A model generated the notes under the pieces. That model was given only the letters and a program-made list of their open reading frames with translations, was not told the DNA's origin and did not search any database. A stretch of DNA of 64,000 bases from Vulcanimicrobiota bacterium (GTDB lineage: Bacteria; Vulcanimicrobiota; Vulcanimicrobiia; Vulcanimicrobiales; Vulcanimicrobiaceae). The translations under genes were made by a program, and so were the position numbers. How positions within the stretch are numbered: the stretch's first letter is position 1; each line of letters starts with the position of its first letter. Of the stretch, positions 10,448 to 64,000 are shown one piece after another. The stretch is from NCBI GenBank assembly GCA_963717425.1, contig OY970335.1, positions 1,777,226 through 1,841,225 on the forward strand, read 5' to 3'.

Positions 10448-10455
10448 GACACTCC

Positions 10456-15059: not shown

Positions 15060-15079
15060 CGGCACCGCCGCGAAGGGAG

Positions 15080-16791: not shown

Positions 16792-16832
16792 CGGGATGCA
16801 TTTCGACTGCGGCGCCTAAGAAGCTCCTGGCC

Positions 16833-17357: not shown

Positions 17358-17397
17358 CGGACCCAAACCAAATGGCTTTCCTGAGGGTTGAAATGAC

Positions 17398-20385: not shown

Positions 20386-20400
20386 TATGATGGTTACAAA

Positions 20401-28022: not shown

Positions 28023-28116
28023 GGGAGTGTACGGGTCTGGTGGCCCGCACGGTCTTCAAAATCGCTGAGGTCGTCGCAAGGCGACTGGTAGGTTCGATTC
28101 CTACACGCTCCCGCCA
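28023..28116 (+). tRNA. selC: tRNA-Sec (anticodon TCA) with encoded CCA.
   Basis: Folded by hand. 8-bp acceptor stem (GGGAGTGT/ACGCTCCC with one G-U). 6-bp D stem (CGGGTC/GGCCCG) with the 4-nt loop TGGT. Anticodon loop CTTCAAA. Long variable arm (GTCGTC-GCAA-GGCGAC). 5-bp T stem (GTAGG/CCTAC) with a TTCGATT loop. This is the bacterial 8/5 tRNA-Sec architecture. The anticodon stem pairs imperfectly in my fold. Confidence 0.85.
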
Positions 28117-46969: not shown

Positions 46970-49045
46970 ATGACTAGGTTCGAACTGAAGACGACTCTCT
47001 CGGTGCTTGAGGACCTCGGAATCAACAACTACACCAACGCCGCCGCCGTTCTCTCAGAGATCGTGGCGAATGCTTGGGACGCTGACGCTTCCAACGTCTT
47101 CGTTACGGTCAGCGGCAGCGGCGCAAGCCGCGTGATGACGATCGAAGATGACGGCGTCGGCATGACTGCTCTCGAGATCAATGAACGCTATTTGACCGTT
47201 GGCTACAAACGGCGCGATGCGCCGGGCGGAGGGCGAACTCCGTTGGGACGCGCAGTGATGGGGCGTAAAGGGATCGGCAAACTAGCCGTATTTTCGATCG
47301 CTTCGAAGGTCGAAGTGCACACCGTTAAGGGAAGGGCGCGGAGTGCATTCTCGATGGACCTAGCAGATCTTCGAGCGGACGCCAAAGCACAACGGCCGTA
47401 TTATCCCAAGGATCTCGCCTGTGTTAAGAACTTGACACGCGGTACGAGAATCGTTCTGCGCGGTATCAATGCATCTCTGACCCTCACCGACCGCTTCCTG
47501 CGACGGCATCTTTCCCGTCGCTTCACCATCATTGATGGCGCTCACGGCTTCTCTATTACAGTCAACGGGAAGCCTTTGACGCTTGCGGATCGGGAGTATT
47601 ATCCGAAGCTACAGTACATCTGGCATTATCACATGCCCGTCGTGCCGACTCTCGCTACAGCGGCGGAACAGGAAGAGGCACGCAACTTCCAAGTCTCGGT
47701 CCCCAATAAGAGCGGCAACGCGACTAAGTATGCGATATCCGGCTGGATCGCTACGGTAAAACAGCGTTCCCAACTGGCATCGTCGGATGACGACAACCTC
47801 AATCGCTTGTCTTTGGTCGTGCGCGGTAAACTCGCACACGAAAACTTTCTCGAGGAGTTCAGTGAAGCAGGGGTGTATGCAACTTATCTCATCGGAGAGA
47901 TGAACGCGGATTTCCTCGATATTGACGACAAGCCGGACATTGCAACGCCGAGCCGCCAGCGAATCGTCGAGAGCGATCCCCGTTACGTGGCTCTCAAGAA
48001 GTTTGTCCAGGCCGAACTGAAACACATCGAGTCGTCTTGGACCGCAATTCGCAACCAGACTGGACTTGAGTCCGCCCTGGAGATCCCAGCGATTTTTCAA
48101 TGGTACCAAGGCTTACAGCCCCGCGAGCAGATGATCGCGACAAAGCTATTGGGTCGGGTCAACACCTTACCGATTGAAGCCGACGAGCGACGAACGCTAT
48201 TTAAGCAGGCCGTTCTCTCGTTCGAGGTCTATAGGGTCAAGAGCAATCTCGACGCCCTGGAATCGATGTCATCTGACCAACTAGCTGCAGTCGGAGAGAT
48301 CTTCAAGAGTATCGATGACATCGAGGCAGCTCTTTACCTGCAGCTGGTTCGACAGAGGATCGGGATAATCGACGCCTTCGATCGCATGGTAGGTGAGAAT
48401 CAGAAGGAAGTCTTCCTGCAAAGCCACGTTTTTAACCACCTCTGGCTATTAGACACGGCTTGGGAACACGCCACTGAGAACGCTGTCATGGAAAAGAGCG
48501 TTCTCAAGATGCTCAAGGACGCAACAGGGAAGCCCACCAGTTCACTTTCAAGAGAGGTCGCTAGATCTCGCGTCGATATCCGATACAGGCTCGTCAGCGG
48601 TCGGCACGTGATCATCGAGCTCAAGCGCGCCAACAGGGTAATGAACACCGCCGACCTGCTGAAGCAAGTACAAAAATATGCGGCCGGAATGCGGAAGCTA
48701 TTGGCGGATAGCGGTGGCGCTTACGAACCATTCGAAATCATCGTACTGGTGGGGAAGCGGTTGAGCGATTGGAGCAACGATCCTGGGGCGGAGGAAGTCT
48801 CGCGGAAAACCTTTGCTCCGCATCAGACCCGAATTATGATGTACGACGAGGTGCTACGAAACGCGAAGAGTATGTATGGGGAGTTCGTCGCCAGAGAGAA
48901 GGAAGCATCAAAAATTGGGGCTATTCTCGAAAGCATCGACGAATCGGATATTCCCAAATCCGGTATTCTGGTACCAGGAGCCAATAAGAAGAGCCTTCCT
49001 CAGACTTCGGCGATGAAGCCGATCGTGCGCAAGAAACGACGATGA
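46970..49045 (+). CDS. GHKL/MORC-like ATPase (HATPase_c_3) fused to a C-terminal PD-(D/E)xK nuclease-like module; candidate ATP-dependent restriction component.
   Basis: Bergerat-fold motifs SEIVANAWDA, TIEDDGVGM and GRKGIGKLAVFS. C-terminal VDIRYRL...HVIIELKR (D at 48576-48578, E-L-K at 48617-48625). The stop overlaps the vsr start (ATGA at 49042-49045). Confidence 0.8.
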   Translation: MTRFELKTTLSVLEDLGINNYTNAAAVLSEIVANAWDADASNVFVTVSGSGASRVMTIEDDGVGMTALEINERYLTVGYKRRDAPGGGRTPLGRAVMGRKGIGKLAVFSIASKVEVHTVKGRARSAFSMDLADLRADAKAQRPYYPKDLACVKNLTRGTRIVLRGINASLTLTDRFLRRHLSRRFTIIDGAHGFSITVNGKPLTLADREYYPKLQYIWHYHMPVVPTLATAAEQEEARNFQVSVPNKSGNATKYAISGWIATVKQRSQLASSDDDNLNRLSLVVRGKLAHENFLEEFSEAGVYATYLIGEMNADFLDIDDKPDIATPSRQRIVESDPRYVALKKFVQAELKHIESSWTAIRNQTGLESALEIPAIFQWYQGLQPREQMIATKLLGRVNTLPIEADERRTLFKQAVLSFEVYRVKSNLDALESMSSDQLAAVGEIFKSIDDIEAALYLQLVRQRIGIIDAFDRMVGENQKEVFLQSHVFNHLWLLDTAWEHATENAVMEKSVLKMLKDATGKPTSSLSREVARSRVDIRYRLVSGRHVIIELKRANRVMNTADLLKQVQKYAAGMRKLLADSGGAYEPFEIIVLVGKRLSDWSNDPGAEEVSRKTFAPHQTRIMMYDEVLRNAKSMYGEFVAREKEASKIGAILESIDESDIPKSGILVPGANKKSLPQTSAMKPIVRKKRR

Positions 49046-49431
49046 GGCGTTCCTCGTCCGAACGCATGCGTCGAGTTGGCCGACGCGATACTGACTGCGA
49101 GTTGCGCCTTCGGTCTCGTTTGCATGCGATTGGATTTCGGTATCGAGTTGACTATTGCGTCGAAGGTTTGCGCACGAAACCTGATATCGCATTCGTCCGG
49201 GCAAGGGTCGCTATCTTCATCGACGGTTGCTACTGGCACGGATGTCCGGAGCATGGGACAATCTCTAAGACAAACGTCGGATTTTGGCGAGCGAAGATCG
49301 AGGGCAATCGAGAGCGGGATCGGCGCTTGACGAAGGACCTGACTCGGGCAGGCTGGCGAGTCGTGCGGTTGTGGTCACACGAATCTCTTGGCACCATGCT
49401 GGAACGAATTCGCGACGCATTGACGCGTTAG
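49042..49431 (+). CDS. vsr: Very-short-patch repair endonuclease.
   Basis: RMRRVGRRDTDCELRLRSRLHAIGFRYRV...KPDIAF...VAIFIDGCYWHGCPEHG...FWRAKIEGNRERDRR...GWRVVRLWSHE is collinear with E. coli Vsr as I remember it. Confidence 0.9.
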   Translation: MRRSSSERMRRVGRRDTDCELRLRSRLHAIGFRYRVDYCVEGLRTKPDIAFVRARVAIFIDGCYWHGCPEHGTISKTNVGFWRAKIEGNRERDRRLTKDLTRAGWRVVRLWSHESLGTMLERIRDALTR

Positions 49432-50576
49432 AATGCCATCACCTCCTCGTGGTGAAGCAAGTCTTCTAAGAACTGCGGGGGATAATGAAGATTGCTCCTC
49501 TCAAGACGCCCACGGAAGCCACGCGTCGCGCGCTCCGACAGCGGTGGCGGCTCTTGCGTCAGGAATCGCATGATCGGCGTCATTTCTAGGAGTACTGGAA
49601 AGGCACTGACCTCTATCGAGTAACGCTCTCCGCTGCGCCCCCAGGCTGCGAGCGGCCACGGCCCCGATTTCGGGAACCTCCTGCCGCGCAAATCGCGTTT
49701 GGTTTCGGGCACCCGACCAAGCCTCTTACCGATCCAGGAGGCAACTGGGACGCTGACGGCATTCCCGATCATCTTCCAGCGTTTGCGCTCAAACCTGGGA
49801 ATATCGCTCCCGATATCCGTCCAACCGATCGGGAAGCCTTGCAACGCCTCGGCATCCGCGATCTGCGGCATGACAATGGACCGTCGACGCCTCACCCAGA
49901 TCGCCGGGGGTGATGGAATGTGAATCCCGGAGCCGCTCTTCAGTGGGGGTACGGAATCATCAGCCCAACCTAGCCCGGCATTACCCTCGGTCCAATAGAA
50001 GCCGTGCGCCTGAACGTCATCGTGTCTAGGTGCATGTCCAACATCCTGGTCGAGTAGAATGCTTGGCGCAGAGTCGTCAAGCGATGCAACAAGAAGCCAA
50101 CGTTTCCGACGCTGCGGCAATCCGAATGCGGAAGTATCGACGATGCGATACGACCACGTGTATCTCATTGCCTCAAGCAAACGTGTGACATACGCAAGCG
50201 CTTTCCCGCGCTCAAGGTGAACGATGTTTTTGACGTTTTCCAAAACGATAAACGTGGGAAGGCGCTTCCTCGGGGTCTTAGCGATGAGCGCGAACATCCG
50301 CCGCAGGAGATCACGGCTGCCGTGCAAGCCGCTCGTCGGACCCACCTGACTGAAAGTCGAACAAGGAAAACCCGCGAGAATTGCATCTGACCGAGGTAGC
50401 TGTGTAATATCGAAAATATCCCCCGCAATGTCGCTCGTGAACCGATGCCGAAGGACCGATCGGCATGCATCATCGATCTCGTTAAGAAAAACCGCGTGAT
50501 GCCCGGCATTCTGAAATCCGAGTTCCAAGCCGCCGATTCCGGAAAAGAGACCTACGACTTGCAATCTATCCTCCAT
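49428..50576 (-). CDS. dcm: DNA (cytosine-5)-methyltransferase.
   Basis: Start at ATG 50576 (MEDRLQVVGLFSGIGGLELGF, motif I). GFPCSTFS (motif IV), VLENVKN (VI), QRRKRWLLVA (VIII), GNAVSVPV (X). The 131 codons upstream in the ORF are Arg/Ser/Pro-rich and probably not translated. The stop overlaps the vsr stop convergently (TTAG). Confidence 0.93.
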   Translation of the reverse strand: MEDRLQVVGLFSGIGGLELGFQNAGHHAVFLNEIDDACRSVLRHRFTSDIAGDIFDITQLPRSDAILAGFPCSTFSQVGPTSGLHGSRDLLRRMFALIAKTPRKRLPTFIVLENVKNIVHLERGKALAYVTRLLEAMRYTWSYRIVDTSAFGLPQRRKRWLLVASLDDSAPSILLDQDVGHAPRHDDVQAHGFYWTEGNAGLGWADDSVPPLKSGSGIHIPSPPAIWVRRRRSIVMPQIADAEALQGFPIGWTDIGSDIPRFERKRWKMIGNAVSVPVASWIGKRLGRVPETKRDLRGRRFPKSGPWPLAAWGRSGERYSIEVSAFPVLLEMTPIMRFLTQEPPPLSERATRGFRGRLERSNLHYPPQFLEDLLHHEEVMAF

Positions 50577-50636
50577 TGAGCATCTGATCGAGGCGGTTCC
50601 ATCCACTGCGATCGCTGGAAAGGCGATAAGTACTCC

Positions 50637-50680
50637 ATTAGAAGCGTTTTCCCTCGAGATTAGAAGCGTTTTCCCTCGAG
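50637..50680. repeat. Perfect 22-bp tandem duplication ATTAGAAGCGTTTTCCCTCGAG x2 in the dcm/UDG-like divergent intergenic region.
   Basis: Read directly: 50637-50658 and 50659-50680 are identical. The repeat lies about 60 nt upstream of the dcm start. Confidence 0.9.
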
Positions 50681-50968
50681 CGGCCTTGGCTGGGCCGCGT
50701 CGGGCTTCGCACGGGACTGAAATACGCCGAAGAAAGACAGCCCGGATCAGCCACGAATAGGGGCGCCGCGATGCTTCGTGCGAGTGACTGGGACTCTGTT
50801 GATCCGCGAAGCCTGCCGTCGTTCGGGACGCGCGCTCTCCAGGCGCCTTGCCCGTAGGCGTCCGCTCGCGGCCTCCCTGCGGGCCAGTCTCATACGATCT
50901 CGTGCTGGGGCTTCGGGGTACGGTCGGCGAAATGCGGGCCGCTTGTGAACACTGCAAACGGGAGCCCA

Positions 50969-51706
50969 ATGACGGCAGTCCGAGAAGTCTTCGATTCGAT
51001 AGCCTACTGCAAGAACGTTGCGCTGTGCCATCACGGGGGCGAATCGCACCCCTGCGCCACGATCGTTCGGTCGCAGCACGTTTCAGACGCCAATTTTCAA
51101 CTGCCAGAGCCGTGGCGCGGCCGGATCGACAAGGCGCGCATCCTATTCATAGGCTCCAACCCTTCGATCGGCGACGATCGGTACGCGCTTCAGTCTTCCC
51201 CTGAAACGCAGGTCTGGGAGTCACAGCATCTCGCATTCGGCGGCGGAAGCCGGCCATACGTCATAGACGGCATCAGGACGACTACGGCCACTGGGTCGCC
51301 CGACCACGTCGTACGCTATTGGTCGTCGATTCGGGCCAGGGCGCGCGAGTTGATCCCATGCGCGGTCCCGGGCGAGGACTACGCGATTTCTGAAGTCGTG
51401 CACTGCAAGTCCAAGGGCGAAGAGGGAGTCGCCGAAGCAGCCCAGACCTGCTATGCCATGCACATGTCGGCCGTGTTTTCGGTCGCGGCCGCGAAGGTCA
51501 TAATCGTGCTTGGCAAGTTCGCCAAGGAACAGCTGCTGGGTGCCGTGCCCGCTCCTTCGATTCCATCGCAGCTGGAGCTGGGAGGTTGGAAGCGGACCGT
51601 GCTCTTCTTGCCGCATCCCAACGCCAGAGGCGTACGGAAAGCCCTTGCAGCGCACTATGCCGGTGCGGACTTAGAGGCGGTCAAAGAGCTAATCGCGGCC
51701 CCTTGA
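50969..51706 (+). CDS. Uracil-DNA glycosylase superfamily protein (MUG/TDG- or family-4-like).
   Basis: ATG 50969 is preceded by GGGAG. ILFIGSNPSIGDD resembles the GINPG/GMNPG catalytic motif. FLPHPNARG resembles the HPS/NPSG C-terminal motif. An N-terminal Cys cluster is present (CKNVALCHHGGESHPC). Confidence 0.55.
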   Translation: MTAVREVFDSIAYCKNVALCHHGGESHPCATIVRSQHVSDANFQLPEPWRGRIDKARILFIGSNPSIGDDRYALQSSPETQVWESQHLAFGGGSRPYVIDGIRTTTATGSPDHVVRYWSSIRARARELIPCAVPGEDYAISEVVHCKSKGEEGVAEAAQTCYAMHMSAVFSVAAAKVIIVLGKFAKEQLLGAVPAPSIPSQLELGGWKRTVLFLPHPNARGVRKALAAHYAGADLEAVKELIAAP

Positions 51707-51720
51707 GAACACCCAGGGAG

Positions 51721-52473
51721 ATGGACGACGAGACATTCCTCGCATTCGTTCGCAATAGCGCCGCCAAATGCGATCTCGAGACGCTTGAAAAAGCCGTTAA
51801 GGCGCTAAGCGATAGCATCGCCAGTCGGCGCTGGGGGAGGCCGCCAGGTCTCGAAGTTGGGTCTCACGTTGCGGCCGTCGATTTCGATGGATGCTTTGGA
51901 TGGTACGGCACAGTCATTCGGTTGACGGGCCAGGGTTGCATCATCGAGCCGCCGGCTGCAAAATATACCCAGCGAATCTCGTTCAAGAGGTTCATAGTGC
52001 GCATCGTGGACGAGTTTGAATGGAATCGCGCATGTATGGCCGCAGAAGAGCGAGCGCACGACTTCGCCGAAAAAAAGGTTCGAGAAGATGCCGAATTGGA
52101 GGCGGACCGGGAGGACGCAATTAAAGATCGCGCCCCTGCAGCTCAGCGCCCCAAAAATATGCTGGCGATGAATGGTGCGGTAAGTGTGTACCGAGGAGCG
52201 TTCGTTCACGCTTATCGTCCCGACTGCGATGACCACGAGTACGGCGTGGTCGTCTACATGACGCCGAAGGCCCTGGACCTGAGTAGCCCGGAATCCGCGT
52301 GGATCCATCGAGTCGTCGCGGTGAAACATGAAATCGACATCCTGAGCGAGGGAGAGTGGCAAGTGGTGGATGCCGAGTTACGACGGAGGCGAGCGGAATA
52401 CGAAGCAGCGGAAAAGGCCGGGAAAACATCCGATCTGATCGACTACAGTAATGTCAGGATCCCCCTGCGTTGA
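51721..52473 (+). CDS. Hypothetical protein with two similar small beta-rich segments, each followed by a charged helix.
   Basis: ATG 51721 is preceded by CAGGGAG. The internal repeat is seen by eye (...GWYGTVIRL...IVRIVDEFEWN vs ...YGVVVYM...AVKHEIDILSEGEWQ). No family recognised. Confidence 0.5.
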   Translation: MDDETFLAFVRNSAAKCDLETLEKAVKALSDSIASRRWGRPPGLEVGSHVAAVDFDGCFGWYGTVIRLTGQGCIIEPPAAKYTQRISFKRFIVRIVDEFEWNRACMAAEERAHDFAEKKVREDAELEADREDAIKDRAPAAQRPKNMLAMNGAVSVYRGAFVHAYRPDCDDHEYGVVVYMTPKALDLSSPESAWIHRVVAVKHEIDILSEGEWQVVDAELRRRRAEYEAAEKAGKTSDLIDYSNVRIPLR

Positions 52474-52609: not shown

Positions 52610-53857
52610 TTGCCGTTCCTGGACAACCCGAGCCGCCACGGTCTTGATCGAAATGCAGTCACACTACCTGTGATACCCCAAGGCCAGGACCCACGCGGAA
52701 ACGCTCACACTCCAGCATCGTCCGAGCCCGCGTACCTCTTAGAAACTCTTCGTATCATTGAAGCAGCCACCAATCACGATGCGGAGAAGCTGTCGATCTT
52801 CGTCGCGGCCCTCGTAAATAAGCTCCGCGAAAACGGCTTCGCTCACGCTGGGAAGCTTATCGAAAGAGCGTTTAACCGGTCGCGCGAGAGGCAGCTCTCC
52901 CCACAGTCATTGGGGCGCACAGTCGAAGGAGGGCTGCGGATTCCAGTTGACCCGGAGACTCACGTACCGCTAGCGGACGTCGAAACGCTTTCGGTAGACG
53001 ACTTGGGCTACGAAGCCGATCCGTTGACGTCGGCTAATACGTCTTCGTTCCTGTCCTTCGCGCGTAATCGGGGCAAGCTTCTCGCGAGTGGAATCTTCGT
53101 GCCGACGAATCTTCTGCTGCACGGGCCGCCTGGCTCCGGCAAAACGATTACTGCGAGATACGTCGCCGCCGCTCTCGGCCTGCCTATTATAACCGCCAGG
53201 ATGGATGCCGTTGTCTCCAGCTACTTGGGAAACACTGCAAAGAACATCCGCTACATTTTTGATGCAGCATCGTCGCAAAATGTCGTGCTGTTCCTGGATG
53301 AGCTTGATGCGATCGCGAAGGCCCGAGATGATGAGCACGAGCTTGGCGAACTAAAGCGCGTGGTAATAGCGCTGCTCCAAAACATCGACTCCGTGAACGG
53401 GAAGCTGATCCTGATTGCGGCGACTAATCACGAGCATCTTCTTGATCCGGCGATTTGGCGGAGGTTCCCGCACCGCGTCGGATTTCAGTCTTCCACGCTT
53501 GACTTTAGAAGGGCGCTGTTCGCGAGGTTTTCGACCGGGTTGCCGCCGGTCTGGTATGATGCCCTCGCACATGCCTCGCGTGGCCTAAGCGCCGGGGATA
53601 TACGCGAGATAACACAACGCGAGCAGATCAGCGCCATCATTGAAGATCGACTTATCCTTCCGGCCGCATTGCTGCGGAGCACGCTTGGCGTCGCTTCAAA
53701 GGGACCGGGCGGTTCGTACATGCCGATCGCGGATGTCGCCCGACGCGCAGCTTCCCGTGATAGTAAGTATTTTACTATTACTAGGCTGGCGAATCTACTT
53801 GGGGTTAGCCGCAGCAGGATCACAAGTTACCTTCGTAGGGCACGGCGTGCCAGATAA
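52610..53857 (+). CDS. AAA+ ATPase (classic AAA clade), IetA-like.
   Basis: LLLHGPPGSGKTITARYVA (Walker A), VVLFLDELDAI (Walker B), LIAATNHEHLLDPAIWRRF (sensor/Arg finger region). An S8 protease gene lies immediately downstream. The TTG start is uncertain. Confidence 0.85.
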   Translation: MPFLDNPSRHGLDRNAVTLPVIPQGQDPRGNAHTPASSEPAYLLETLRIIEAATNHDAEKLSIFVAALVNKLRENGFAHAGKLIERAFNRSRERQLSPQSLGRTVEGGLRIPVDPETHVPLADVETLSVDDLGYEADPLTSANTSSFLSFARNRGKLLASGIFVPTNLLLHGPPGSGKTITARYVAAALGLPIITARMDAVVSSYLGNTAKNIRYIFDAASSQNVVLFLDELDAIAKARDDEHELGELKRVVIALLQNIDSVNGKLILIAATNHEHLLDPAIWRRFPHRVGFQSSTLDFRRALFARFSTGLPPVWYDALAHASRGLSAGDIREITQREQISAIIEDRLILPAALLRSTLGVASKGPGGSYMPIADVARRAASRDSKYFTITRLANLLGVSRSRITSYLRRARRAR

Positions 53858-53903
53858 CTTTCAGCTCCCCATCCAAAGGGTGCTCAACCGCGACGGAGAC
53901 CGT

Positions 53904-56108
53904 ATGGCACGGCACGCTGGCGGAGGAGCAGATACTGTTTTCGAGGATGACGGCGAAGGTGGAGGACAAGGGGGTGTGCTTGCGGTCCTACCTCAGATCG
54001 AGCGAGAGGTAAACGCGCTTTCAGCAAGGTTCCCCTCAGTCCCGGCCGTTCTTCGCGTTCGCCTTAAGGACAATGCGCTCGCAAAGACACACCGGCCGAC
54101 CTCCTTATTCGACGAAGAAGCGCCCATAATAGGCGGCGAGGGGCCCGGAGAGTTGCTTGTTGCGGCCATGCCGCACTCACTCGCGGTTGTACGGCGCCGC
54201 GTCTCCAACCCCACCTCGCAGCGGATGCGCGCTAATATCTCAACAATTAGAGAAATGAACCTTGTCGAGCCGCGATCGAAGGTGGCTGAACTCCCGCATG
54301 AACCGAATGCTGATGGGCGGTATCAGCTTAAGGTAAAGCTATTCGATTATCACGATCAAGGCGTAAACGATCAATCACTGCGGAGGTTCATGACGTATCT
54401 CCATGAGCTTAACGTTGACGATCCAACAGTCCACCAGTATGCGCCAGATCTAAGAGTATTCGGGCTTGAGGTCGCCGATTTAGGGTTGGCTGAGCGGATC
54501 GCAGAGTTTCCGACCGTGAGGGCGGCGACGGCCTTTCCTCAGTTTGGCCACGATATTGACTTTGCGGCAGTGTCACTGGGGGCGCTCCAACCGGAGCGTC
54601 TTCCTCCGCCGGCTGCCGGCGAGCAGTATCCAGTGGTTGGGATGATTGACGGCGGAACCGACCCCGCGAACGCGCCGCTTCGCCCGTGGATTACCAATCG
54701 GTATGAGCCCTCCCCAGGTGCTGACAGGAATTTCGCTCATGGCACCTTCGTGGCTGGACTGATCGCAAGCCCAAAATCCCTTAACGGGCTTCTTGAGGCA
54801 TTCCCACCCACAAAGTGCCGGATCGTCGACGTGATCGCGATGCCGACCACCGGCCTTAGGGAACCGGAGCTCCTTGCAACGATTGATGCGGCTCTCGTAC
54901 AATTTCCAGACGTCCGAATTTGGAACATTTCCCTTGCGCGCAACGTCCCCGCCCATAAGGATGAGTTCAGCGATGTAGCGCGGGCGCTCGACGCTCGGCA
55001 GGATCGTCACAATGCCCTTTTTGTTATCGCCGCTGGAAACTACCGGACGCCGCCGCTCCGATCGTGGCCACCTCAGCCCTTAGCAGATCGAGATCGTGTA
55101 GCAGCACCCGGTGACTCAGCTCGCGGCCTCACGGTCGGGTCCGTTGCACACCTCGATAACGGTATATCGGCCGTGAGGACCGGTGAACCATCACCATTCT
55201 CTCGCCGTGGACCCGGCCCGTCGTTTATCCCGAAACCCGAACTTCATCACCACGGTGGGAACTGTTCGGCAAACGGCGACTTTCGCCAAATTGGCGTTCA
55301 ATCTGTCAACGAGCAAGGCTTGCTTGCCGAAGACGTGGGGACGAGCTTCGCAACGCCGATCATCTCATCTATTGTCGCGAACGTCGATCGCGCGCTCGGT
55401 GGCGGAGCTTCGAGGAACCTCCTCAAAGCGCTAATGGTGCATAGTGCGCTACTAAATAGCGGTCCCGACGTATCACCAAGTGACTTAAACTACTACGGCT
55501 TCGGAAAACCAACTGACGTTGTTGACGCGCTCGCGTGCGATCCGTGGTCATTTACGTTCCTGTTTGAGCCTAAGCTAGTCGCGGGCTATTACTACAATAT
55601 TTGGCCGTTCCCGCTTCCGGCGTGCTTACATCGAAACAATCGGCTATATGGCGAGGTTATAATGACATTGGTTTACGATCCGCCATTAGACAAAAGCTAT
55701 GGCTTTGAATATTGCCGGAGCAACGTCGAGGTTTCATTTGGAACGTACCTAGAGGACGCGGAAGGGAAGCGCCACCAGGCCGGCAAGGTGCCTGCGGACC
55801 CGGCGAGTCCAGACCTGGCTTTCGAAAAGTCTCGAATCGAGCACGGTTTCAAATGGTCGCCGACTAAGGCGTATAGGAAGCGCTTTCGTGGGACTCGTGG
55901 CGACGTTTGGAGACTCATGGTAGAAATCTTACACAGAAGTAACTTCGCGCCGACTGACCCGCAGCGCGCTGCCATTATATTGACGCTACGCGATCCGGAC
56001 AAGAATCGACCAGTTTATACTGACACGATGGACGCGATTCGATTAGTGGGCCGCCCGATCAGCGCACTCCGCGTACGAGACCAAGCGCGCTATCGGCGCC
56101 GAGCCTAG
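53904..56108 (+). CDS. S8 (subtilisin-like) serine peptidase, IetS-like.
   Basis: ATG 53904 is preceded by GGAGAC. Catalytic contexts are VVGMIDGGTD (Asp), HGTFVAGLIA (His), VIAAGNY (oxyanion Asn) and GTSFATPIISS (Ser). The N-terminal region of about 230 aa is of unknown fold. Confidence 0.85.
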   Translation: MARHAGGGADTVFEDDGEGGGQGGVLAVLPQIEREVNALSARFPSVPAVLRVRLKDNALAKTHRPTSLFDEEAPIIGGEGPGELLVAAMPHSLAVVRRRVSNPTSQRMRANISTIREMNLVEPRSKVAELPHEPNADGRYQLKVKLFDYHDQGVNDQSLRRFMTYLHELNVDDPTVHQYAPDLRVFGLEVADLGLAERIAEFPTVRAATAFPQFGHDIDFAAVSLGALQPERLPPPAAGEQYPVVGMIDGGTDPANAPLRPWITNRYEPSPGADRNFAHGTFVAGLIASPKSLNGLLEAFPPTKCRIVDVIAMPTTGLREPELLATIDAALVQFPDVRIWNISLARNVPAHKDEFSDVARALDARQDRHNALFVIAAGNYRTPPLRSWPPQPLADRDRVAAPGDSARGLTVGSVAHLDNGISAVRTGEPSPFSRRGPGPSFIPKPELHHHGGNCSANGDFRQIGVQSVNEQGLLAEDVGTSFATPIISSIVANVDRALGGGASRNLLKALMVHSALLNSGPDVSPSDLNYYGFGKPTDVVDALACDPWSFTFLFEPKLVAGYYYNIWPFPLPACLHRNNRLYGEVIMTLVYDPPLDKSYGFEYCRSNVEVSFGTYLEDAEGKRHQAGKVPADPASPDLAFEKSRIEHGFKWSPTKAYRKRFRGTRGDVWRLMVEILHRSNFAPTDPQRAAIILTLRDPDKNRPVYTDTMDAIRLVGRPISALRVRDQARYRRRA

Positions 56109-56381
56109 CGGCTAGCCGCCGCGCCCCTGCCTCGCTGTACCCTAGGCCAAGAATTACTTGCGGTTGGACCTCGAAATTGTGCGCTCGACCTCGCCGCCGG
56201 ATAGGGGAATGTCGAGCGGACTGGCCGGAACGCCCGGGCGGGCGATGCAACTCTAGCGCGGATCCACTGCGTGCGCACAAGGTTCGCAGCAATCAGAATG
56301 CGATATTTACGCATCGAGGAGGGCGGAGTGCGACCCGGTCTGTAAACGCTCGGTTGACTCGTGGTTTCTTAGGAGGTTTCC

Positions 56382-57308
56382 GTGACCGTATCGAGGCGCG
56401 TAAAGGAAGCAGATGCTGAGGCTTTCGCGGAGGTTTTGTCTAAGACAGCGTTGCCAGGAGGTACGGCAAGATTTGGCCATTTCGCGCTGCGAGGAAAGAG
56501 TGGCGTTAGAGACCGGATCAACTGGTCGAACCGTACGAACGGCAACGACCTCATCCTCGGCAAGCAGGAGTACACGTTCCCTTGCGGCGCGGCAGACGTT
56601 CAACTCTCGCTGCAACTCTATTTCAACGTGCGCCGCCACTATCGCCTTTTCGCATATACGAGGGCTGGCGATGTAGAAGGCATGACGTTCTCGGTCAACC
56701 TTACGACGAAAAGAGAATCGCGAAGCGTCATATTCCTGGAGCAGCCGATCAGTTTCAAGGAACGCTATCCGGATGCCCGAGATGGTGGCATCGAGCGCCG
56801 CCGGCAAAAGCAGATTCTGCTCTGCGATGTGCTTAGGCGCATCGGCATGGACGTCGACGATGATGCGAGGCTGGTTCTCGGCGTCTTCGATCCGCAGGGC
56901 CGAATGCTGCTCGACGCCACACCCGAGAGCTTTCTGAATAACTTCGTCGCGGCAGCGCTGTTGAAGGGCCACTTTCAGGGCAATAAGGGATATGAGTTGG
57001 ACGTCATTCCTTCTATGCGGGCCGCATACGATCTCTTCGCGCCAGCGAAAATGAATCCAAAATGGAAATCGCTGAGGGGGCGTCGCCCTGCTGGGCGCCC
57101 TCCAATTCCGTTAGCGGTACGTTACAAGGTCCTCGCGAGGGATCGGAGCGTATGCCGAAGGTGCGGACGGGGAGTGGCGGGAGGTCTCACTCTGCACATT
57201 GACCACAAGACCCCGGTTTCGCTCGGCGGCGACAGTGGCCTGAAGAACCTCTGGACGCTTTGCAGCGAGTGCAACCTCGGCAAGGGCAACCGCATCATCG
57301 ACCGCTAA
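56382..57308 (+). CDS. HNH endonuclease with an N-terminal domain of about 230 aa of unknown function.
   Basis: GTG 56382 is preceded by AGGAGG at 6-nt spacing. The C-terminus is CRRCGR...LHIDHKTPVSLGGDSGLKNLWTLCSECNLGKGNR (HNH with a CxxC...CxxC zinc site). Confidence 0.85.
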   Translation: MTVSRRVKEADAEAFAEVLSKTALPGGTARFGHFALRGKSGVRDRINWSNRTNGNDLILGKQEYTFPCGAADVQLSLQLYFNVRRHYRLFAYTRAGDVEGMTFSVNLTTKRESRSVIFLEQPISFKERYPDARDGGIERRRQKQILLCDVLRRIGMDVDDDARLVLGVFDPQGRMLLDATPESFLNNFVAAALLKGHFQGNKGYELDVIPSMRAAYDLFAPAKMNPKWKSLRGRRPAGRPPIPLAVRYKVLARDRSVCRRCGRGVAGGLTLHIDHKTPVSLGGDSGLKNLWTLCSECNLGKGNRIIDR

Positions 57309-58261
57309 ATTCGCGTTATCGCCTTGAGGGCCGCGCATCGACAAAGTGCGTCCTCGATGAAATCCTCCGGCGGCTGCTCAGACTCGCTCGACTCGTTAAG
57401 CTCCAAGCCGCCGCGCAATTCATCCTCGGCCACCCCGCCGGAGGCGGGAGCGTCACGCGCCTCGCACCGGCAACGTCTTAATGCGGCGTAGCAAAATTTC
57501 CACGCAACCGACGACAGTGATGCGTCGGGTCGCGTTCGGCTACCGATTCGGCGATGCGCACGCTTCCGGCGCTCAACGCTGCGCTTCGCGCCACCGTTCG
57601 GCGGCAGGGCTGATCACGATTTTCCACGCGGCGCGCGTCGCGAGAGCGGCTAAGGAGCGCAGGCCTCGGATACTGACCAGCCCAGCTTTTGGTATCGAGA
57701 AGTACCATTATCGTTAGCTAAGGGGCGAACCGTGGCTCATCAGGGCGTCCATCGCCGAAACGGCTCCCGCTATCGCAATGGCTATGGGCTCATTGCGGAC
57801 TCATCCGAGCCGAAGGGTCTCTAGCGCGTTTGGCGACGCAGTCGGTTGTAGGGTATAGCGGCAGCCAACGTTTCAATCGAGGCCCTATCAGAGAGGCAAA
57901 CGAGGGTGACGACATGGCTGCGCGGGTTTCTCTGCAAGTTAGGCGCTTATTACACCCCGTGCGCGATGCCATGCCGCCGGCGATAGTTTAGCCGATTCCC
58001 GAATCCAATCTAGCCCGTTATAGTGCTTCAACAAGGTTGTGAATTGTGGCCTTGGGTTCGATCGTCCGAGTCAAAACGCGACCCACACTAGAGCCGGCTC
58101 GGGCACCGACGGTTAGGAAACGTGCAGCGCCTTTCTTATCAAACATTTTATTCGTTTATACAGGCATTCAGCTCCAGAGGGGGCTCAATTCAAACGCTTG
58201 CTCCAGATATTTGCGCCGACGCTAATGAGGAAGAACCAAGGTGAGTCACGTCAGCACTGGC

Positions 58262-58546
58262 TCACGCATCGATCTCTGCGGCTATCCCTTCAGCGACACG
58301 CCGAAGAGCATTTCCCCATTGCCCCCTCGGCAATCCGCTGACTTCAAAATAGTGTCTGGCGATGTCAGCGAAAAAGATGCCAAGCGCCGCTGGATCGGGC
58401 CACGGGTTCTCAGTTGTGGCAAAGCCAATGTCCTCATTTGGGAGCATCCAAGCGCACAGTATCTCCACAGCAGCCGGATTCTTAATAACATCATCAGGGA
58501 TCGTAAGCCTACGCATGTACTTTTTTATACCTCTAGGGCGGGACAC
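58262..58546 (-). CDS. Small hypothetical protein, possible (orphan) immunity protein, DUF5076-like.
   Basis: 94 aa. LTIPDDVIKNPAAVEILCAWM...WPDPAALGIFFADIARH resembles DUF5076-type sequences from memory. It lies downstream of the RHS toxin/LRR pair in the low-G+C segment. Confidence 0.35.
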   Translation of the reverse strand: MSRPRGIKKYMRRLTIPDDVIKNPAAVEILCAWMLPNEDIGFATTENPWPDPAALGIFFADIARHYFEVSGLPRGQWGNALRRVAEGIAAEIDA

Positions 58547-58651
58547 TAGTGTTTGCGCCTATTTGCGCGTTAAGCATGCAGATGCGCTGAGCCGCTAGCA
58601 AGGTCATGTGTGATCGGTGGCCGCCTGCAGGCCCGAAGGCTAGAAGTTAGC

Positions 58652-59536
58652 TTATTGAGCAAAACGGTGCGAATCCCTCTCTAACTTGGACCACAACTTG
58701 TTATAATTATAATTGTAATGCTTCCTATTCTGAAATGCAAAATTCTCAAGCTTCATTTCATTTACGATAGCAGTATTGCCATCGAGAACGTTTGTGGAGT
58801 CGGTAAAATACAACTCCTTCAGGTTATGGTCAGTCCGTAGGGGATTTAACGACGCAATATTTCCCACGTTGTCGAGGTGTAAGCACTCAAGCTTCGGTAA
58901 GTTGGTAATGACGTCGACGCTTTTCAACTTTCTACAGGTTTGAATCCTAAGGTCTCGCAGCGATTTGAGTGAACTAATGGCAGTAAAATCGTCTAGCTTA
59001 CGGAGGTGGGAGAGTGTGAGGTTTTTTATGCCATTGCATCGCTCGAGCCCAGACAAAGTGCGAAGCGGCCCTCCGATGAGCTCAAGCTCGCGCAAATAGG
59101 GGGCCGTACCGATGACTTGTAGATTCTGATCGCCCCATGAGAAAACTCGCAGCGTGGTTAGCAGGGGTGCTCGCCAAAGATTAACGAGCTTGGGTCCCCA
59201 TGGGACACTCAGCTCCTCGATCAGCGGCCACGACGCAGGATCAGCATCGAAAAAACTATCAGATTGAACCGTCAAGACCCGTAGGTTATGGAGGTTCGCA
59301 ATCCCATGAATATCAAATGCGGTCCGGTTTATTATGTGGAGTCGCTCTAGATTTCGAAAGCCTTGCAGTAGGCTGATGTCACCGGTCCTACGTCGCCACA
59401 GAGTCCAGATCTCTGTTACACAAGATCCGGCGGGTCCGATCTCTCGTAATAGTTCTGGCGTTAAAGGATCTGCTAGCAGCAGCGATATGCTATCATGCGC
59501 CGATTCAAGCCGAAAGCCAGACGTCGGAAGTTGCAC
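58652..59536 (-). CDS. Leucine-rich-repeat protein; candidate cognate immunity protein of the RHS toxin.
   Basis: 294 aa with repeated LxxLxLxxCxxL units (LRELELIGGPLRTLSGLERCNGIKNLTLSHLRKLDDF...LRDLRIQTCRKLKSV...LECLHLDN). The GTG start is 8 nt after the RHS stop. The gene is markedly A+T-richer than its surroundings. Confidence 0.8.
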   Translation of the reverse strand: MQLPTSGFRLESAHDSISLLLADPLTPELLREIGPAGSCVTEIWTLWRRRTGDISLLQGFRNLERLHIINRTAFDIHGIANLHNLRVLTVQSDSFFDADPASWPLIEELSVPWGPKLVNLWRAPLLTTLRVFSWGDQNLQVIGTAPYLRELELIGGPLRTLSGLERCNGIKNLTLSHLRKLDDFTAISSLKSLRDLRIQTCRKLKSVDVITNLPKLECLHLDNVGNIASLNPLRTDHNLKELYFTDSTNVLDGNTAIVNEMKLENFAFQNRKHYNYNYNKLWSKLERDSHRFAQ

Positions 59537-59544
59537 GTAGTTTT

Positions 59545-62500
59545 CTACGGAGGGCTTTGCTGCGTACTTTGCTGGGGCCGTGCTCCTTGAGCGTTGATCT
59601 TATTGGCTACGTTGGGATTACCCACGCCGCCCGCCTCATCTATTGCATTTTGCTCCGCGGTTTTTAGATTGCCAGAAACCGCCCGGGTCTGGACTGATCC
59701 AAAGTTCTCGCTTGTCAACTTTCCGCTCCTGATATGCTGGGCCATTCTTTGTCCGATGTTTATCGATCTACCGACATACGTCTTTCCTTGCGTGATGAAT
59801 CTGTATATTCCCCGAGCGACGCCACCCGCTAGCGCTCTGCCAGCAGCGGCGGCGGACGCCGCGGAGCGAGCGGTTGCGGCGGCAAAGCCTCTCGCGCTGC
59901 TCGCGAGCGCAGCGTCACCCACTGCTTCGGCGGCCTCACCAACAGCCAGAGCACCGCCTTCGACTACGACGGCGCCTACTGCCGCCTCTCCAACGCACGC
60001 GTCTTCGATACAATAACCGCTCGGATCGTTGTACTCGACTGGATTATTATCGTTCCACATGAAGGACTTTTGAGACATCGGGTCATGCACATCACCGGCA
60101 TATGCGTCAGGGGTCGTCCAAGATCCCGACGTGTTGTCATACGAGCGCGCGCCTTGGATTGTGTCGAAGCCGTCAGTCAATCCATCGGTCCGTGGCATGC
60201 CGAGTACGCCACTAGATCCCATTGCCCACCCTAAATCTGAACCATTGGTACCATCGTACGCTGAGCCAAACCATCTGATCGACTTTGGTTCATTCGGCGT
60301 CGTGAGAGGAAAGCACGGCGAGTGCCAAATGCTCACCTCATTCCGGAAGAAGGTTTGATTCCAACTGTCGCCGAGACCGGCAAAGGTACTTGCGTTAGCG
60401 TTATGGCAGCCGATGACCACGCCGCCGGGGCCACGATCGTAGAAAGTTAAGCCGGCATATCCCGTATCTTGCGGCAGGATGTCACCTTGGGCTCCGATCT
60501 TGATGTCGTCGAGTGCTGCAGTCGAGCCGTCGCTGGCAAATAGCAACTGATTTCCGTCCCAGTGAAGGACCTCGTTGTGCAGTTTTCCAGAGCTGTCAAA
60601 AGTGCCGATCATAATCGGATGGCCGTTGGGACCCCAGCTTATTCCCTGCTCGACCGGGGGGCTCACATTTACTCCCGAAAACTCCGTGTTTAGTAGATGA
60701 TTTTCGGCGTCGTACGTTCGGCCCACTGTTGTGGCCGCAAACGTTCCGGTGCTAAACTGCTTCCACGGCGCGGATTGACCATTCATTTGGCCTGCATTAC
60801 TGTAATTCCAGGTCGTAGGGATAGAGTTGCTGCCAAAAGGGACCTGTTGGGTCTGCACGCCCATAAAGGCGTCCCAGTAGTACGAAGTTGCGCTGCTAGG
60901 CTGTAGTCGAATCATCACGCCGTTAGCTAAGAATCCACCTCCGCCAAGATAGTTCTGAGAACTTGGCGATGACACCAGCTCCCCACGCAAGCTGTAGCCC
61001 CACGTGGGTGGCCCCTGAGAGGAGCCTTGAATGGTGGTGCTGAGTAACTCGCCCTCCGCGCTGTATGAGAAGTTTAACAGGCTGGTGGCCGGAGAACTAT
61101 ATGAACTCTCTTGTCCATAGCCGTCGTAGGTTATGGTTGTCGGAGTCGCGTTTTTAGCGATGCCAGTCTCAGCGCGGTTGTTCATTCGTCCCGTATTGTC
61201 GTATGTGTAGACGATATTTGTTATTCCCGCATTCTTGATTTGGCTGCCAAGGGTTCCATCATTGATGGTTTCCGTTCCGATAAGCCCATCCTGACGGTAA
61301 GAATAGCTGAAGAGCGCAGCTTGCGTTACGGCCGCCGAAGAGACGTCGACGCTTTCCAGCGTGCCGTCGGGATAATAGTTATGCGTAACGACGGCGGATG
61401 ACATCCTGTCGCTATTTGTATCACCGCTGGGATCAGTCGAGGTCCGGAGCCGCCCATCGAGGTTGTACGTGTATAGCTGGGGGTTGCTGTAAGCTCCCGA
61501 CGTAATTTGTGCCGGCTGACCGTCTGGGTCATACAGATAGTCTCGTTCTGGAGAAGATCCGCCGCTGGACTCGAAGGTCTTCTCTTTCCCATCCTCGCGA
61601 TAATCGAACTTCTGGCATTGGCCTAAAGCGTTACAATCGGTACCAAGCAGTCCTGCAACATTACCGCTTCCGAGCGGAGTGATATCCCAAGTCAGTGCCT
61701 CTGTACTCAGTGTCTCCGTATTCGATTGGTTAACTAAGGAATATTTCGCAACGGCCCGATCGACATCATCGTATGCGGTTGCCTTGATGTTTTGATAGCT
61801 AGTATTAGGTACCGTTTGCGGGTTAGCATTGTACTGTATAGAGGGATTCGCTGATCCCAAAAGCTCTTGCGTCGCGTAGAGGTTACCGTAGGCTTGAAAC
61901 TGCGCGCCGTGAAAAGATTTTTGGCTGCCGTCCAAATCGTACAGGTAGCGGGTTACCCATGGATTCTGATATGCATCGCTGTCGGCTTGCGGGAGTTTGA
62001 CCTCGACGAGCCGATCGAGCCCGTCGTAGTACTTGCACGTCGTTCCGGCGCCAATCGAGGCGCTCGGCGTGCACCATGACGGCGTAGACTTTCCCGCCTT
62101 GCAGCCTCCGGGCACGCAGTTGTGGTGGCGCGCCTCGGTCGCGACATCACCGTCGGGATCGTAGCCGTACGCGACAGCGTACTGCGGTGGTGTTGCGCCC
62201 GACTTCAACTGGCTATCGGTCGGACACGATGGTCCCCCGTCGAGGTGATACTGCCAGCCGGTCTCACTGTAGAAAACGCTCCCATCGAGATTGTAGCAAA
62301 TATTAGATGATATATGCAGATCGGGATCGGTGCGCCTGGTTACACGGTTCATTCCATCGGTAGTGTACTGCAACACCCATTGGGTATTGCTCGTGGGGTA
62401 GCTGCTGTATGTAGACAAGTTGCCGGCGGTCGTATAGGCAAACTTTTGGTGCGGGATTCGATTGTTGTCCTGACCGATCGCAGTGCCTGTGACATCGGTG

Positions 62501-64000
62501 GGAAGACCCATTCCACAGTTCGATCCGGGATAGTTGATGGTTCGAGCGTAGCCGCCGAATGTGTCCATTTCGATTAGGCAGCCGTATGGTTCCGCAGCGT
62601 CGTTTGGATTAAAGATAAACTTGGCGTGGTTTGTGCCGTACGTTTGGCACAAATTGTCCGCCGGTACCTGCCAGCCGTTGTTGTTACCGTTGTTGGCCGG
62701 ATCGCAGTAAAACTTCACATTGTTGTAGCTGTCGTAATCATAGAAGCTCGTCGGGTTAATCGACCCCTGAGGGAATATGGTCATCTTAGGAAGGACGACC
62801 TCCACGGTGTTGCCGTTGACGTCGTAGCCCATCTTCGTCACATAGCCGCGCGCGTCGGTTGTACTTGTAAGGTCGTTGTTCGCGTCCCAGGCCTGGGATG
62901 TTCCGAGCCATGTGCTTCCCCCACCCGTAGTGAGAACGTACGTCTGAATCGCACGATTGCTTCCGTCGTAACACCACTGGGTATTATGCTGGAAGGCATC
63001 CACCATTTCGGCCATTGATCCAGTGCAATTGCTCCATGGGATTTGATTGTTGAAAAAGTCTGTATCGTCCCATTGTACGAAGCCGGTATTCTCGCCGCTC
63101 TGTATAGCCGAGGGCGATAAGACATTGTCCTGAGGAGTGGGGTTAAGCACGCCGCGCGTATACCAGTCGGAAAGCTGATGACTGGAATAGTCGAAGTCGA
63201 CGCAAGCTCCATCCGTGGGGTGTCCGCTCGTGTCGATGTTAGAAATTGTGGCGCGCGGACCGCACACCTCCATGAGTCCTGGCGGTCCAATATCGTAGGT
63301 CTCAGGTAGGTTGCCTCTGGCGATAGGCGCTCCGTCGAGAAAACTTGTCGGCATGGTTTCGTTCGCGAGCACCGGGGTGTTCCCCGGCTTATCGACATCG
63401 TCAACCTCACCATTACTGGAATAATGATAGTTGACCGTTTCGTTATCTGGCAACGTGATCGACATCAGCTCGGTAATAGGGGGACTAGAACCTGCAATCT
63501 GTCCGAATGTCATCGTTAGCTGAGCGCCGTCAGGCTGGTGTGTCGCGACGATCGTTGCAAGATTTTCCGGGTTACTAGCGTCTGGGCTCCAACTATATGC
63601 TAGGTTAATATAAAAGTTCGTATTGCGCCCATAAATTGCCAGAAGCCGCCCGTAGTATCCCGCTTGATTGCTCGTGCAGTTAGAGTAGGGCGCGTCAAAC
63701 ATGTAGCTCGTTCCGGATTTCTTGGTCCATTGCAACTGGCAGGCAATGCCGTTGCCGCCGAGCTGGGTCGTCGCAAGAATTTCATACACACCGGGGGTCA
63801 GCGACGTGCACGTAGCCACGGTGTTGATCGTGCAACTATAGTCGTCACGGGCGCCATCACCGGTATAAACGCTTACGGTCCCCGTGTTCTGGCCGGTTGA
63901 CGACCAACCAAGGTGAACATCCAAGTTGTTCGTCCAGCGGTTGCCAAATACGGATGGCGTCGACCCGTCAGTATTAATCGCGTCGTGCCCTGACTGGGAA
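59545..64000 (-). CDS. RHS/YD-repeat polymorphic toxin with a C-terminal GIY-YIG nuclease domain. The N-terminus lies outside the window.
   Basis: Many YD repeats (YDVNGN, YGYDPDGD, YLYDLDG, YTYNLDGR, YLYDPDG, YTYDNTGR). The core ends at NDPSGYC and is followed by an Ala/Gly-rich linker. The last 88 aa (nt 59548-59811) are GIYRFITQGKTYVGRSINIGQRMAQH...AEQNAIDE (GIY...YVG...R..H...E). I translated the frame upstream of the listed TTG (63924) and it stays open to nt 64000. Confidence 0.9.
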   Translation of the reverse strand, partial: SQSGHDAINTDGSTPSVFGNRWTNNLDVHLGWSSTGQNTGTVSVYTGDGARDDYSCTINTVATCTSLTPGVYEILATTQLGGNGIACQLQWTKKSGTSYMFDAPYSNCTSNQAGYYGRLLAIYGRNTNFYINLAYSWSPDASNPENLATIVATHQPDGAQLTMTFGQIAGSSPPITELMSITLPDNETVNYHYSSNGEVDDVDKPGNTPVLANETMPTSFLDGAPIARGNLPETYDIGPPGLMEVCGPRATISNIDTSGHPTDGACVDFDYSSHQLSDWYTRGVLNPTPQDNVLSPSAIQSGENTGFVQWDDTDFFNNQIPWSNCTGSMAEMVDAFQHNTQWCYDGSNRAIQTYVLTTGGGSTWLGTSQAWDANNDLTSTTDARGYVTKMGYDVNGNTVEVVLPKMTIFPQGSINPTSFYDYDSYNNVKFYCDPANNGNNNGWQVPADNLCQTYGTNHAKFIFNPNDAAEPYGCLIEMDTFGGYARTINYPGSNCGMGLPTDVTGTAIGQDNNRIPHQKFAYTTAGNLSTYSSYPTSNTQWVLQYTTDGMNRVTRRTDPDLHISSNICYNLDGSVFYSETGWQYHLDGGPSCPTDSQLKSGATPPQYAVAYGYDPDGDVATEARHHNCVPGGCKAGKSTPSWCTPSASIGAGTTCKYYDGLDRLVEVKLPQADSDAYQNPWVTRYLYDLDGSQKSFHGAQFQAYGNLYATQELLGSANPSIQYNANPQTVPNTSYQNIKATAYDDVDRAVAKYSLVNQSNTETLSTEALTWDITPLGSGNVAGLLGTDCNALGQCQKFDYREDGKEKTFESSGGSSPERDYLYDPDGQPAQITSGAYSNPQLYTYNLDGRLRTSTDPSGDTNSDRMSSAVVTHNYYPDGTLESVDVSSAAVTQAALFSYSYRQDGLIGTETINDGTLGSQIKNAGITNIVYTYDNTGRMNNRAETGIAKNATPTTITYDGYGQESSYSSPATSLLNFSYSAEGELLSTTIQGSSQGPPTWGYSLRGELVSSPSSQNYLGGGGFLANGVMIRLQPSSATSYYWDAFMGVQTQQVPFGSNSIPTTWNYSNAGQMNGQSAPWKQFSTGTFAATTVGRTYDAENHLLNTEFSGVNVSPPVEQGISWGPNGHPIMIGTFDSSGKLHNEVLHWDGNQLLFASDGSTAALDDIKIGAQGDILPQDTGYAGLTFYDRGPGGVVIGCHNANASTFAGLGDSWNQTFFRNEVSIWHSPCFPLTTPNEPKSIRWFGSAYDGTNGSDLGWAMGSSGVLGMPRTDGLTDGFDTIQGARSYDNTSGSWTTPDAYAGDVHDPMSQKSFMWNDNNPVEYNDPSGYCIEDACVGEAAVGAVVVEGGALAVGEAAEAVGDAALASSARGFAAATARSAASAAAAGRALAGGVARGIYRFITQGKTYVGRSINIGQRMAQHIRSGKLTSENFGSVQTRAVSGNLKTAEQNAIDEAGGVGNPNVANKINAQGARPQQSTQQSPP

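Follow-up and report, generated by a model that had tools for sequence, protein, structure and literature searches.

A solitary HNH nuclease gene with an N-terminal domain of no known family, found beside IetA/IetS in a defence island of a Vulcanimicrobiota bacterium

An HNH nuclease gene is found directly downstream of an ATPase-protease gene pair in a 64,000 nucleotide (nt) stretch of DNA from a Vulcanimicrobiota bacterium (assembly GCA_963717425.1, contig OY970335.1, positions 1,777,226 to 1,841,225, forward strand); the whole of this stretch is termed the window here. The locus raises the question whether the gene encodes a third, effector component of the upstream pair, or an independent enzyme in which an N-terminal domain of a new type controls the nuclease. 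The initial annotation allowed both. The upstream pair is identified below as IetA/IetS, and comparison of related loci shows the HNH gene to be merely beside this pair in a large defence island and not working with it. The N-terminal domain (N-domain) is shown by sequence comparison to be a swappable module that is reused with three kinds of nuclease. What is new is a sensor domain without Pfam or PDB representation; the protein that carries it belongs to an established type of enzyme, the sensor-HNH fusion nucleases. The gene and its parts, with lengths in amino acids (aa), are as follows.

56371..56376, + strand: Shine-Dalgarno sequence AGGAGG, read in the sequence, with a 5-nt spacer (56377-56381) to the GTG
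56382..57308, + strand: HNH gene, a complete open reading frame (ORF) of 308 aa with GTG start and TAA stop, encoding the N-domain and the HNH nuclease
56382..56996, + strand: N-domain, residues 1-205, delimited from alignments and the domain model
56997..57116, + strand: basic, weakly conserved linker, residues 206-245, with a net charge of +6 in the window protein
57117..57305, + strand: HNH (His-Me finger) nuclease domain, residues 246-308, Pfam PF01844

The HNH gene is a real gene, as judged from the conservation of its product: full-length relatives form more than 200 clusters at 90% identity, are 41-72% identical to the query and give E-values down to 1e-144. The initial annotation described it as well supported, with the start signal AGGAGG-N6-GTG. 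The gene, the AGGAGG and the GTG all hold, and the spacer is corrected to 5 nt. An identical NCBI protein from Candidatus Cybelea sp. (P0001) is annotated with a start 23 residues later. Residues D11-A12..F15..L19, which are conserved and modelled as a confident helix, precede this shorter start, thus the GTG is the better choice.

The C-terminal part of the protein matches Pfam HNH PF01844 over residues 258-304 (E = 7e-11; score 42.5 bits, cut-off 21.4). The motif consists of C258-R-R-C261 (57153-57164), H272-I-D-H275 (57195-57206), N289, and then C294-S-E-C297-N298. C258/C261 and C294/C297 are assigned as zinc ligands, paired CxxC sequences of the McrA, Cas9 and IscB type, and D274-H275 is the catalytic pair, together with N289 and N298. 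All of these motif residues (the zinc CxxC pairs, D274, H275, N289 and N298) are invariant across 35 relatives. The domain thus displays the beta-beta-alpha-metal residues and the zinc-stabilising CxxC pair of the HNH/His-Me finger class, and the canonical zinc HNH motif of the initial annotation is borne out. A profile of the whole family, searched against PDB sequences, gives matches confined to the HNH part, e.g. a phage HNH protein (5h0m, 2.7e-6), EcoKMcrA (6ghc, 3.3e-4), the HNH domains of IscB and Cas9, and the HNH of ZRANB3.

The N-terminal side presents a different situation. Residues 1-245 show zero matches among the Pfam, NCBIfam, PADLOC and PHROG models, in keeping with the approximately 230 aa that had been left unassigned. 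The AlphaFold2 model of the whole window protein has a predicted local distance difference test score (pLDDT) of 81.6, with low confidence in the linker at residues 210-216. A model of the domain alone, made with a more diverse alignment, gives a pLDDT of 92.6 and a predicted template modelling score (pTM) of 0.91. The predicted alpha/beta order is a helix (2-20), an antiparallel beta-meander (28-122), a helix (137-153), a strand (163-170) and a helix (181-199). Signature motifs of the N-domain are SLQLYxN, RLF, GMxFSxNLTT and KGHFxGNKGY. Across the superfamily, Y80, R88, N106, G196, H197, N201 and K202 are invariant, and Q78, N82, S104 and K195 are near-invariant; this conserved polar and aromatic cluster suggests a candidate binding pocket. 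The N-domain is also basic, with a median isoelectric point (pI) of 8.9.

Nearly all characterised modification-dependent and sensor-gated nucleases use few reader folds, i.e. PUA/SRA/EVE, winged helix, DUF3427, SBD and inactivated EndoIII. Foldseek comparison with 350,542 PDB chains gives a best E-value of 1.1 for the whole protein and 1.6 for the domain-only model, with template modelling (TM) scores of 0.29 or less. The whole-protein search of PDB and BFVD yields only HNH-domain or spurious beta-sheet matches, and the N-domain profile finds nothing among PDB sequences at E <= 10. Within the reach of Foldseek and HMMER, the N-domain fits none of SRA, EVE, YTH, ASCH, SBD, DUF3427, winged-helix, McrB-N or EcoKMcrA-N, and a description of the N-domain/HNH family was not found in the literature. 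The N-terminal domain is thus new, with no PDB match by fold or by sequence profile, as the initial annotation had proposed. A phmmer match of residues 16-47 to PDB 2PH0 (E = 0.2) falls on conserved positions; it is absent when the family profile is used and is taken as a chance match.

Relatives of the full-length protein span Bacteroidota, Bacillota, Myxococcota, Eremiobacterota-like and other proteins. A pattern scan of 185,579 species genomes shows 21 loci, all from species-representative genomes and with flanks of up to 10 kb where the contig permits. Among 1.84 billion representative proteins, a profile of residues 1-212 detects 137 clusters, and 109 of them have E <= 1e-10. The N-domain has no matches in 50,697 phage genomes, a single truncated match among 72,556 plasmids, and a single full-length match among 2.9 million viral contigs. 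Strong constraint combined with sporadic spread, as seen in these searches, is what a horizontally moving accessory gene would show.

One Bacteroidia metagenome-assembled genome (OZ257142.1, about 7000-20900; loci L012/L013) carries two copies of the HNH-family gene, 97% identical and 34 kb apart. Both copies lie among densely packed direct repeats (units of 93-300+ nt, with 6 copies at most) between which short genes are placed, an arrangement like that of a cassette array. No Rfam family is matched by this array.

The surroundings of the relatives show no constant partner. In an all-against-all BLAST of the 204 neighbouring ORFs at the 21 loci, no neighbour family is common to more than three loci, and no antitoxin, immunity protein or methyltransferase appears as a conserved partner. 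The recurrent Pfam families of 131 neighbours include no methyltransferase family. The amino-methyltransferase motif IV, (D/N/S)PP(Y/F/W/H), is found in 2 of the 204 ORFs and the C5 PCQ motif in none. By these comparisons the HNH gene is solitary in every relative. A solitary nuclease with no cognate methyltransferase is what is expected of a type IV enzyme, and the adjacent cognate methyltransferase of a type II system is not found with the HNH gene.

The two genes upstream are neighbours outside of the HNH gene itself.

52610-53857, + strand: IetA, PADLOC E = 2e-100
53640-56108 (longest ORF), + strand: IetS, PADLOC E = 3.5e-231

These matches bear out the ATPase-protease module of the initial annotation and identify it as a defence system. 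The NCBIfam IteA/IteS models also match the pair, yet under their equivalog cut-offs. The longest IetS ORF starts with TTG at 53640 and overlaps IetA by 218 nt, and the PADLOC IetS alignment begins only at residue 75; the true start of IetS is therefore probably further downstream.

Between the IetS stop (56108) and the HNH gene are 273 nt, which agrees with the gap of about 270 nt given initially. Both genes are on the same strand, and a promoter/terminator scan of 55900-58700, otherwise uninformative, shows no terminator-like site between them. This arrangement is what favours the HNH gene as an effector component of IetA/IetS, and the related loci speak against it. tblastn finds no IetA/IetS at the 21 relative loci. 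The three closest relatives on long contigs (61-68% identity) adjoin CinA and NAD synthase, S6/SSB and IS21, or unknown genes, and none adjoins Iet. Conserved linkage with IetA and IetS is thus seen in 0 of 24 relative loci. Searched from the Iet side, four related loci are found, and the sole one with more than 1 kb of downstream sequence is without the HNH gene. In addition, PADLOC and NCBIfam model Iet as two proteins, ATPase and peptidase. The co-occurrence with the AAA/S8 pair that a shared system would call for is not seen, and the proposal of a third effector is close to refuted. The annotation is to be corrected in this respect: the HNH gene is to be listed apart from Iet.

The N-domain, on the other hand, is found in several settings. 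The architectures consist of the N-domain with HNH PF01844 (window type), the N-domain with HNH_2 PF13391, a TPR + N-domain + HNH form (P0121), the N-domain with a transmembrane helix (P0186, P0188), the N-domain with JAB (P0246; a partial and weaker N-domain match, E = 5e-6), and nuclease-free forms. The transmembrane, JAB and TPR forms are represented by one or two clusters each, and the contexts of several variants rest on one or few short contigs. In every fusion examined the N-domain is N-terminal to the nuclease. A fragment (P0215) shows HNH_2 and a DUF3427 match under the Pfam cut-off (24.5 vs 27.7 bits) and is a weak lead.

The HNH_2 sister subfamily has the most constant context. It comprises four clusters at 50% identity on five contigs (L120, L122, L123, L030, L031), and on all five a BrxD-like ATPase gene (PADLOC E = 1.9e-148) precedes the HNH_2 form and a BrxHI-like helicase gene (E = 1.7e-44) follows it. 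Stops and starts of the three genes overlap in four of the five contigs, which are too short to reveal any surrounding full BREX locus. Judged by its sequences, the triad resembles the BrxD/BrxHI dyad or Shango SngB/SngC and would be a nuclease-containing relative not described so far. Since the sister subfamily is always situated between BrxD-like and BrxHI-like genes, the N-domain appears to work in DNA-targeting defence modules.

A third nuclease is found at locus L113 (55-5395), where several small additional genes break up an ATP synthase operon (subunits b, delta and alpha): an Asp-protease-like ORF, a 201-aa unknown ORF, a stand-alone N-domain protein of 199 aa and, following it, a PD-(D/E)XK nuclease of 207 aa (E = 1.2e-42). 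One nuclease-free form has a HEAT-repeat protein on one side and a membrane protein on the other; a DUF2357/PDDEXK_7 gene is part of the same island. The same N-terminal sensor is thus found with different nucleases (HNH, HNH_2 and an adjacent PD-(D/E)XK), as would be expected of a type IV-like sensor.

The reading that is given here a probability of about 0.5 is that of an independent, single-protein, DNA-targeting defence nuclease gated by its N-domain. The C-terminal zinc-stabilised HNH domain would cut DNA, and the N-domain of approximately 200 residues would control the time or place of cleavage. The host genome would be spared if the N-domain licenses cleavage only at a feature of invading DNA; the closest analogy for the sensed feature is modified or otherwise non-self DNA, as in EcoKMcrA, TagI and VcaM4I. 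We infer the defence role, the recognition of DNA by the N-domain and a dependence on modification from the combined observations. The absence of a methyltransferase partner, the solitary gene and the expected order of the fusion make a type IV-like mechanism the leading specific hypothesis, where type IV denotes an architectural analogy and not demonstrated membership. Modification dependence as such, argued by analogy, is the more doubtful part of this proposal. The initial suggestion of an independent enzyme with a reader-like N-domain and an HNH nuclease fits the solitary gene, the lack of a linked methyltransferase and the shuffling of the N-domain.

The gene sits in a large defence and conflict island, as judged from the genes around it, which counts in favour of this reading, as do the basic character of the N-domain and its absence from the phage genomes. 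Other features of the window are as follows.

38113-46510, - strand: Druantia-like block, with DruE of 1853 aa (PADLOC E = 0)
43677-44759, - strand: weak DruL-like gene of the Druantia-like block
44633-46510, - strand: weak DruF-like gene of the Druantia-like block
49428-50969: 5-methylcytosine (m5C, C5) methyltransferase, about 5 kb from the HNH gene and directly beside the BbrUII/HgiDII enzyme and Vsr
50945-51706: uracil-DNA glycosylase (UDG)-superfamily gene, directly after the restriction block
51586-52473: ORF of 295 aa without a family match
28023-28116, + strand: tRNA-Sec, the only tRNA of the window

The Druantia-like block extends the defence island well upstream of the HNH gene. In the region 46970-51706, the gene of a BbrUII/HgiDII-family restriction enzyme (NCBIfam E = 3.5e-210) is overlapped by a Vsr gene, and the C5 (Dcm) methyltransferase gene is divergent; all three are upstream of Iet, with the methyltransferase on the opposite strand. 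Antiviral DNA glycosylases are reported in a 2025 preprint (10.1101/2025.10.29.685425), and by this analogy the UDG-like gene may itself serve in defence. On the other side, the approximately 950 nt after the HNH gene (57309-58260) show no ORF of 80 aa or more, and GC falls from 0.61 to 0.49 near 58000. The stretch that follows (58262-63924, - strand) contains a DUF5076 gene, a leucine-rich repeat (LRR) gene and a 1459-aa RHS protein, and looks like a separate toxin and immunity module.

Several observations weigh against the reading of a DNA-targeting defence nuclease. No known reader of DNA or of modified bases is similar to the N-domain, and a sensor from a known modified-base reader family is thus lacking among the type IV features of the protein. 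The transmembrane, JAB and TPR fusions, together with the nuclease-free form flanked by HEAT-repeat and membrane proteins, suggest a sensor or adaptor role broader than the reading of bases. With a host m5C methyltransferase 5 kb away, a broadly 5-methylcytosine-dependent enzyme would be self-toxic; if the HNH enzyme is modification-dependent, it must spare the sites methylated by this enzyme. Some relatives, moreover, are inside housekeeping operons (eut with bacterial microcompartment (BMC) genes, RarA-Nth, CinA/NAD synthase). One relative has an aldehyde dehydrogenase gene and a BMC shell gene on either side, with EutA and EutB encoded at the locus as well; another overlaps the RarA gene (stop/start) and precedes Nth; others adjoin fructose-bisphosphate (FBP) aldolase or serine hydroxymethyltransferase. 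The association with defence islands is therefore only partial. It was assessed semi-quantitatively and includes a PDC-S37/Hhe-like giant protein (L017), Cas9 (L019), and ThsB, ShosA, SoFic, RmrA, PDC-S22 and PDC-S32 as other defence neighbours. Resolvases, integrases and IS91 are found as mobile neighbours, one relative is near a QueC-like/DpnII-domain protein, and the relative on a Hymenobacter plasmid adjoins a DEAD helicase and DUF1998. The initial annotation held that a placement random with respect to defence genes would weaken its proposal, and this is partly the case, with some relatives in housekeeping contexts and others in defence islands.

The same fusions form the basis of an alternative that is considered unlikely, a trigger-activated nuclease of the abortive-infection type. 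Here the N-domain would sense a phage protein or other non-modification signal, and the HNH domain would then cut any DNA, including that of the host. Transmembrane segments, JAB, TPR and the HEAT-repeat and membrane neighbours are typical of sensor-effector combinations, and the failure of the N-domain to match a solved reader fold is consistent with this. However, most partners of the N-domain are DNA nucleases and the HNH_2 form occurs with a DNA helicase and an ORC-like ATPase, which points to DNA as the thing that is read. The basic character of the N-domain argues in the same direction, and the fusions in question are those represented by only one or two clusters each.

The insertions into conserved operons can also be read in another way, as the work of a selfish, homing-like endonuclease gene that stands alone and moves into positions between host genes. 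Single-gene insertions between the eut aldehyde dehydrogenase and BMC shell genes and between RarA and Nth (where stop and start codons overlap), the stand-alone N-domain gene in the ATP synthase operon, and the two copies in the repeat array of one Bacteroidia genome would all be explained. This is improbable, however: no two insertion sites are alike, whereas the putative recognition domain hardly varies, which is the reverse of what a site-specific homing enzyme would show. The domain is also missing from the phage genomes and very rare in viral contigs and plasmids. The intron or intein association of homing endonucleases is likewise not seen. The HNH protein could also be a structure-specific nuclease of housekeeping or DNA repair, or a type II restriction enzyme whose methyltransferase is unlinked; this would account for the RarA overlap with Nth downstream in one genome, the ZRANB3 HNH match and the C5 methyltransferase 5 kb upstream in the window. 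The low probability of this explanation follows from a sporadic, cross-phylum distribution with no recurring repair-gene neighbourhood, from the position of the window methyltransferase directly beside the BbrUII/HgiDII enzyme and Vsr, and from the scarcity of methyltransferase motifs and the lack of methyltransferase families near the relatives.

The preferred reading, a defence nuclease gated by its N-domain, may be part of a wider one, which is offered tentatively. The N-terminal 200 residues may represent a new fold and a new invader-sensing superfamily that gates varied effectors across bacteria, i.e. solitary HNH, HNH_2 in BrxD/BrxHI triads, PD-(D/E)XK partners and membrane effectors. 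In that case the window protein would stand as prototype for a new type IV-like class, one that senses a DNA feature (modification, hypermodification or structure) which no known reader detects. Modification-dependent and sensor-gated nucleases form a major layer of bacterial immunity and are a source of tools for mapping DNA modification. The window protein, one gene of about 300 aa, is a small and tractable entry point to a new recognition principle, and its N-domain is strongly conserved across phyla and has been combined with three or more types of nuclease as well as with BrxD/BrxHI modules.

Among known systems, IetA/IetS and the HNH gene are alike in adjacency, strand and defence island, but they co-occur in no other genome examined. 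The type 2 BREX BrxD-BrxHI dyad and Shango SngB-SngC are related to the sister subfamily, in which the N-domain-HNH_2 gene sits between BrxD-like and BrxHI-like genes; in contrast, the window protein belongs to the solitary HNH subfamily, and no BrxD/BrxHI genes are found near it. The nuclease of the window family is PF01844, and PF13391 is found solely in the sister subfamily. A modular logic of sensor and nuclease has been described for the PUA-HNH fusions and for the END nucleases (PMC6765204, PMC12191111). The END nucleases (PMC12191111), a PLD combined with an inactivated EndoIII, are a different family and have only this modular logic in common with the window protein.

In the PUA-HNH enzymes, which consist of SRA-HNH (TagI, ScoA3IV) and EVE-HNH (VcaM4I, TspA15I) fusions, the sensor is N-terminal and the HNH domain C-terminal, as in the window protein. 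Their genes do not adjoin methyltransferases, and their sensor and nuclease domains are shuffled (PMC6765204, PMC6212794, PMC7897488). Lutz et al. (2019; PMC6765204) argued the modification dependence of these fusions from the same lack of a linked methyltransferase. However, the window sensor has no PUA, SRA or EVE fold. EcoKMcrA, a type IV enzyme (PDB 6GHC), differs from the window protein in the N-domain as well; the two N-domains are unrelated, and Foldseek and profile searches match that of the window protein neither to 6GHC nor to any other PDB chain. In other respects the two are alike: each is a single polypeptide of approximately 280-310 aa with an N-terminal specificity domain of its own fold and a C-terminal zinc HNH domain, the HNH part of EcoKMcrA aligns with the family profile (E = 3.3e-4), and both are encoded by solitary genes without a methyltransferase partner.

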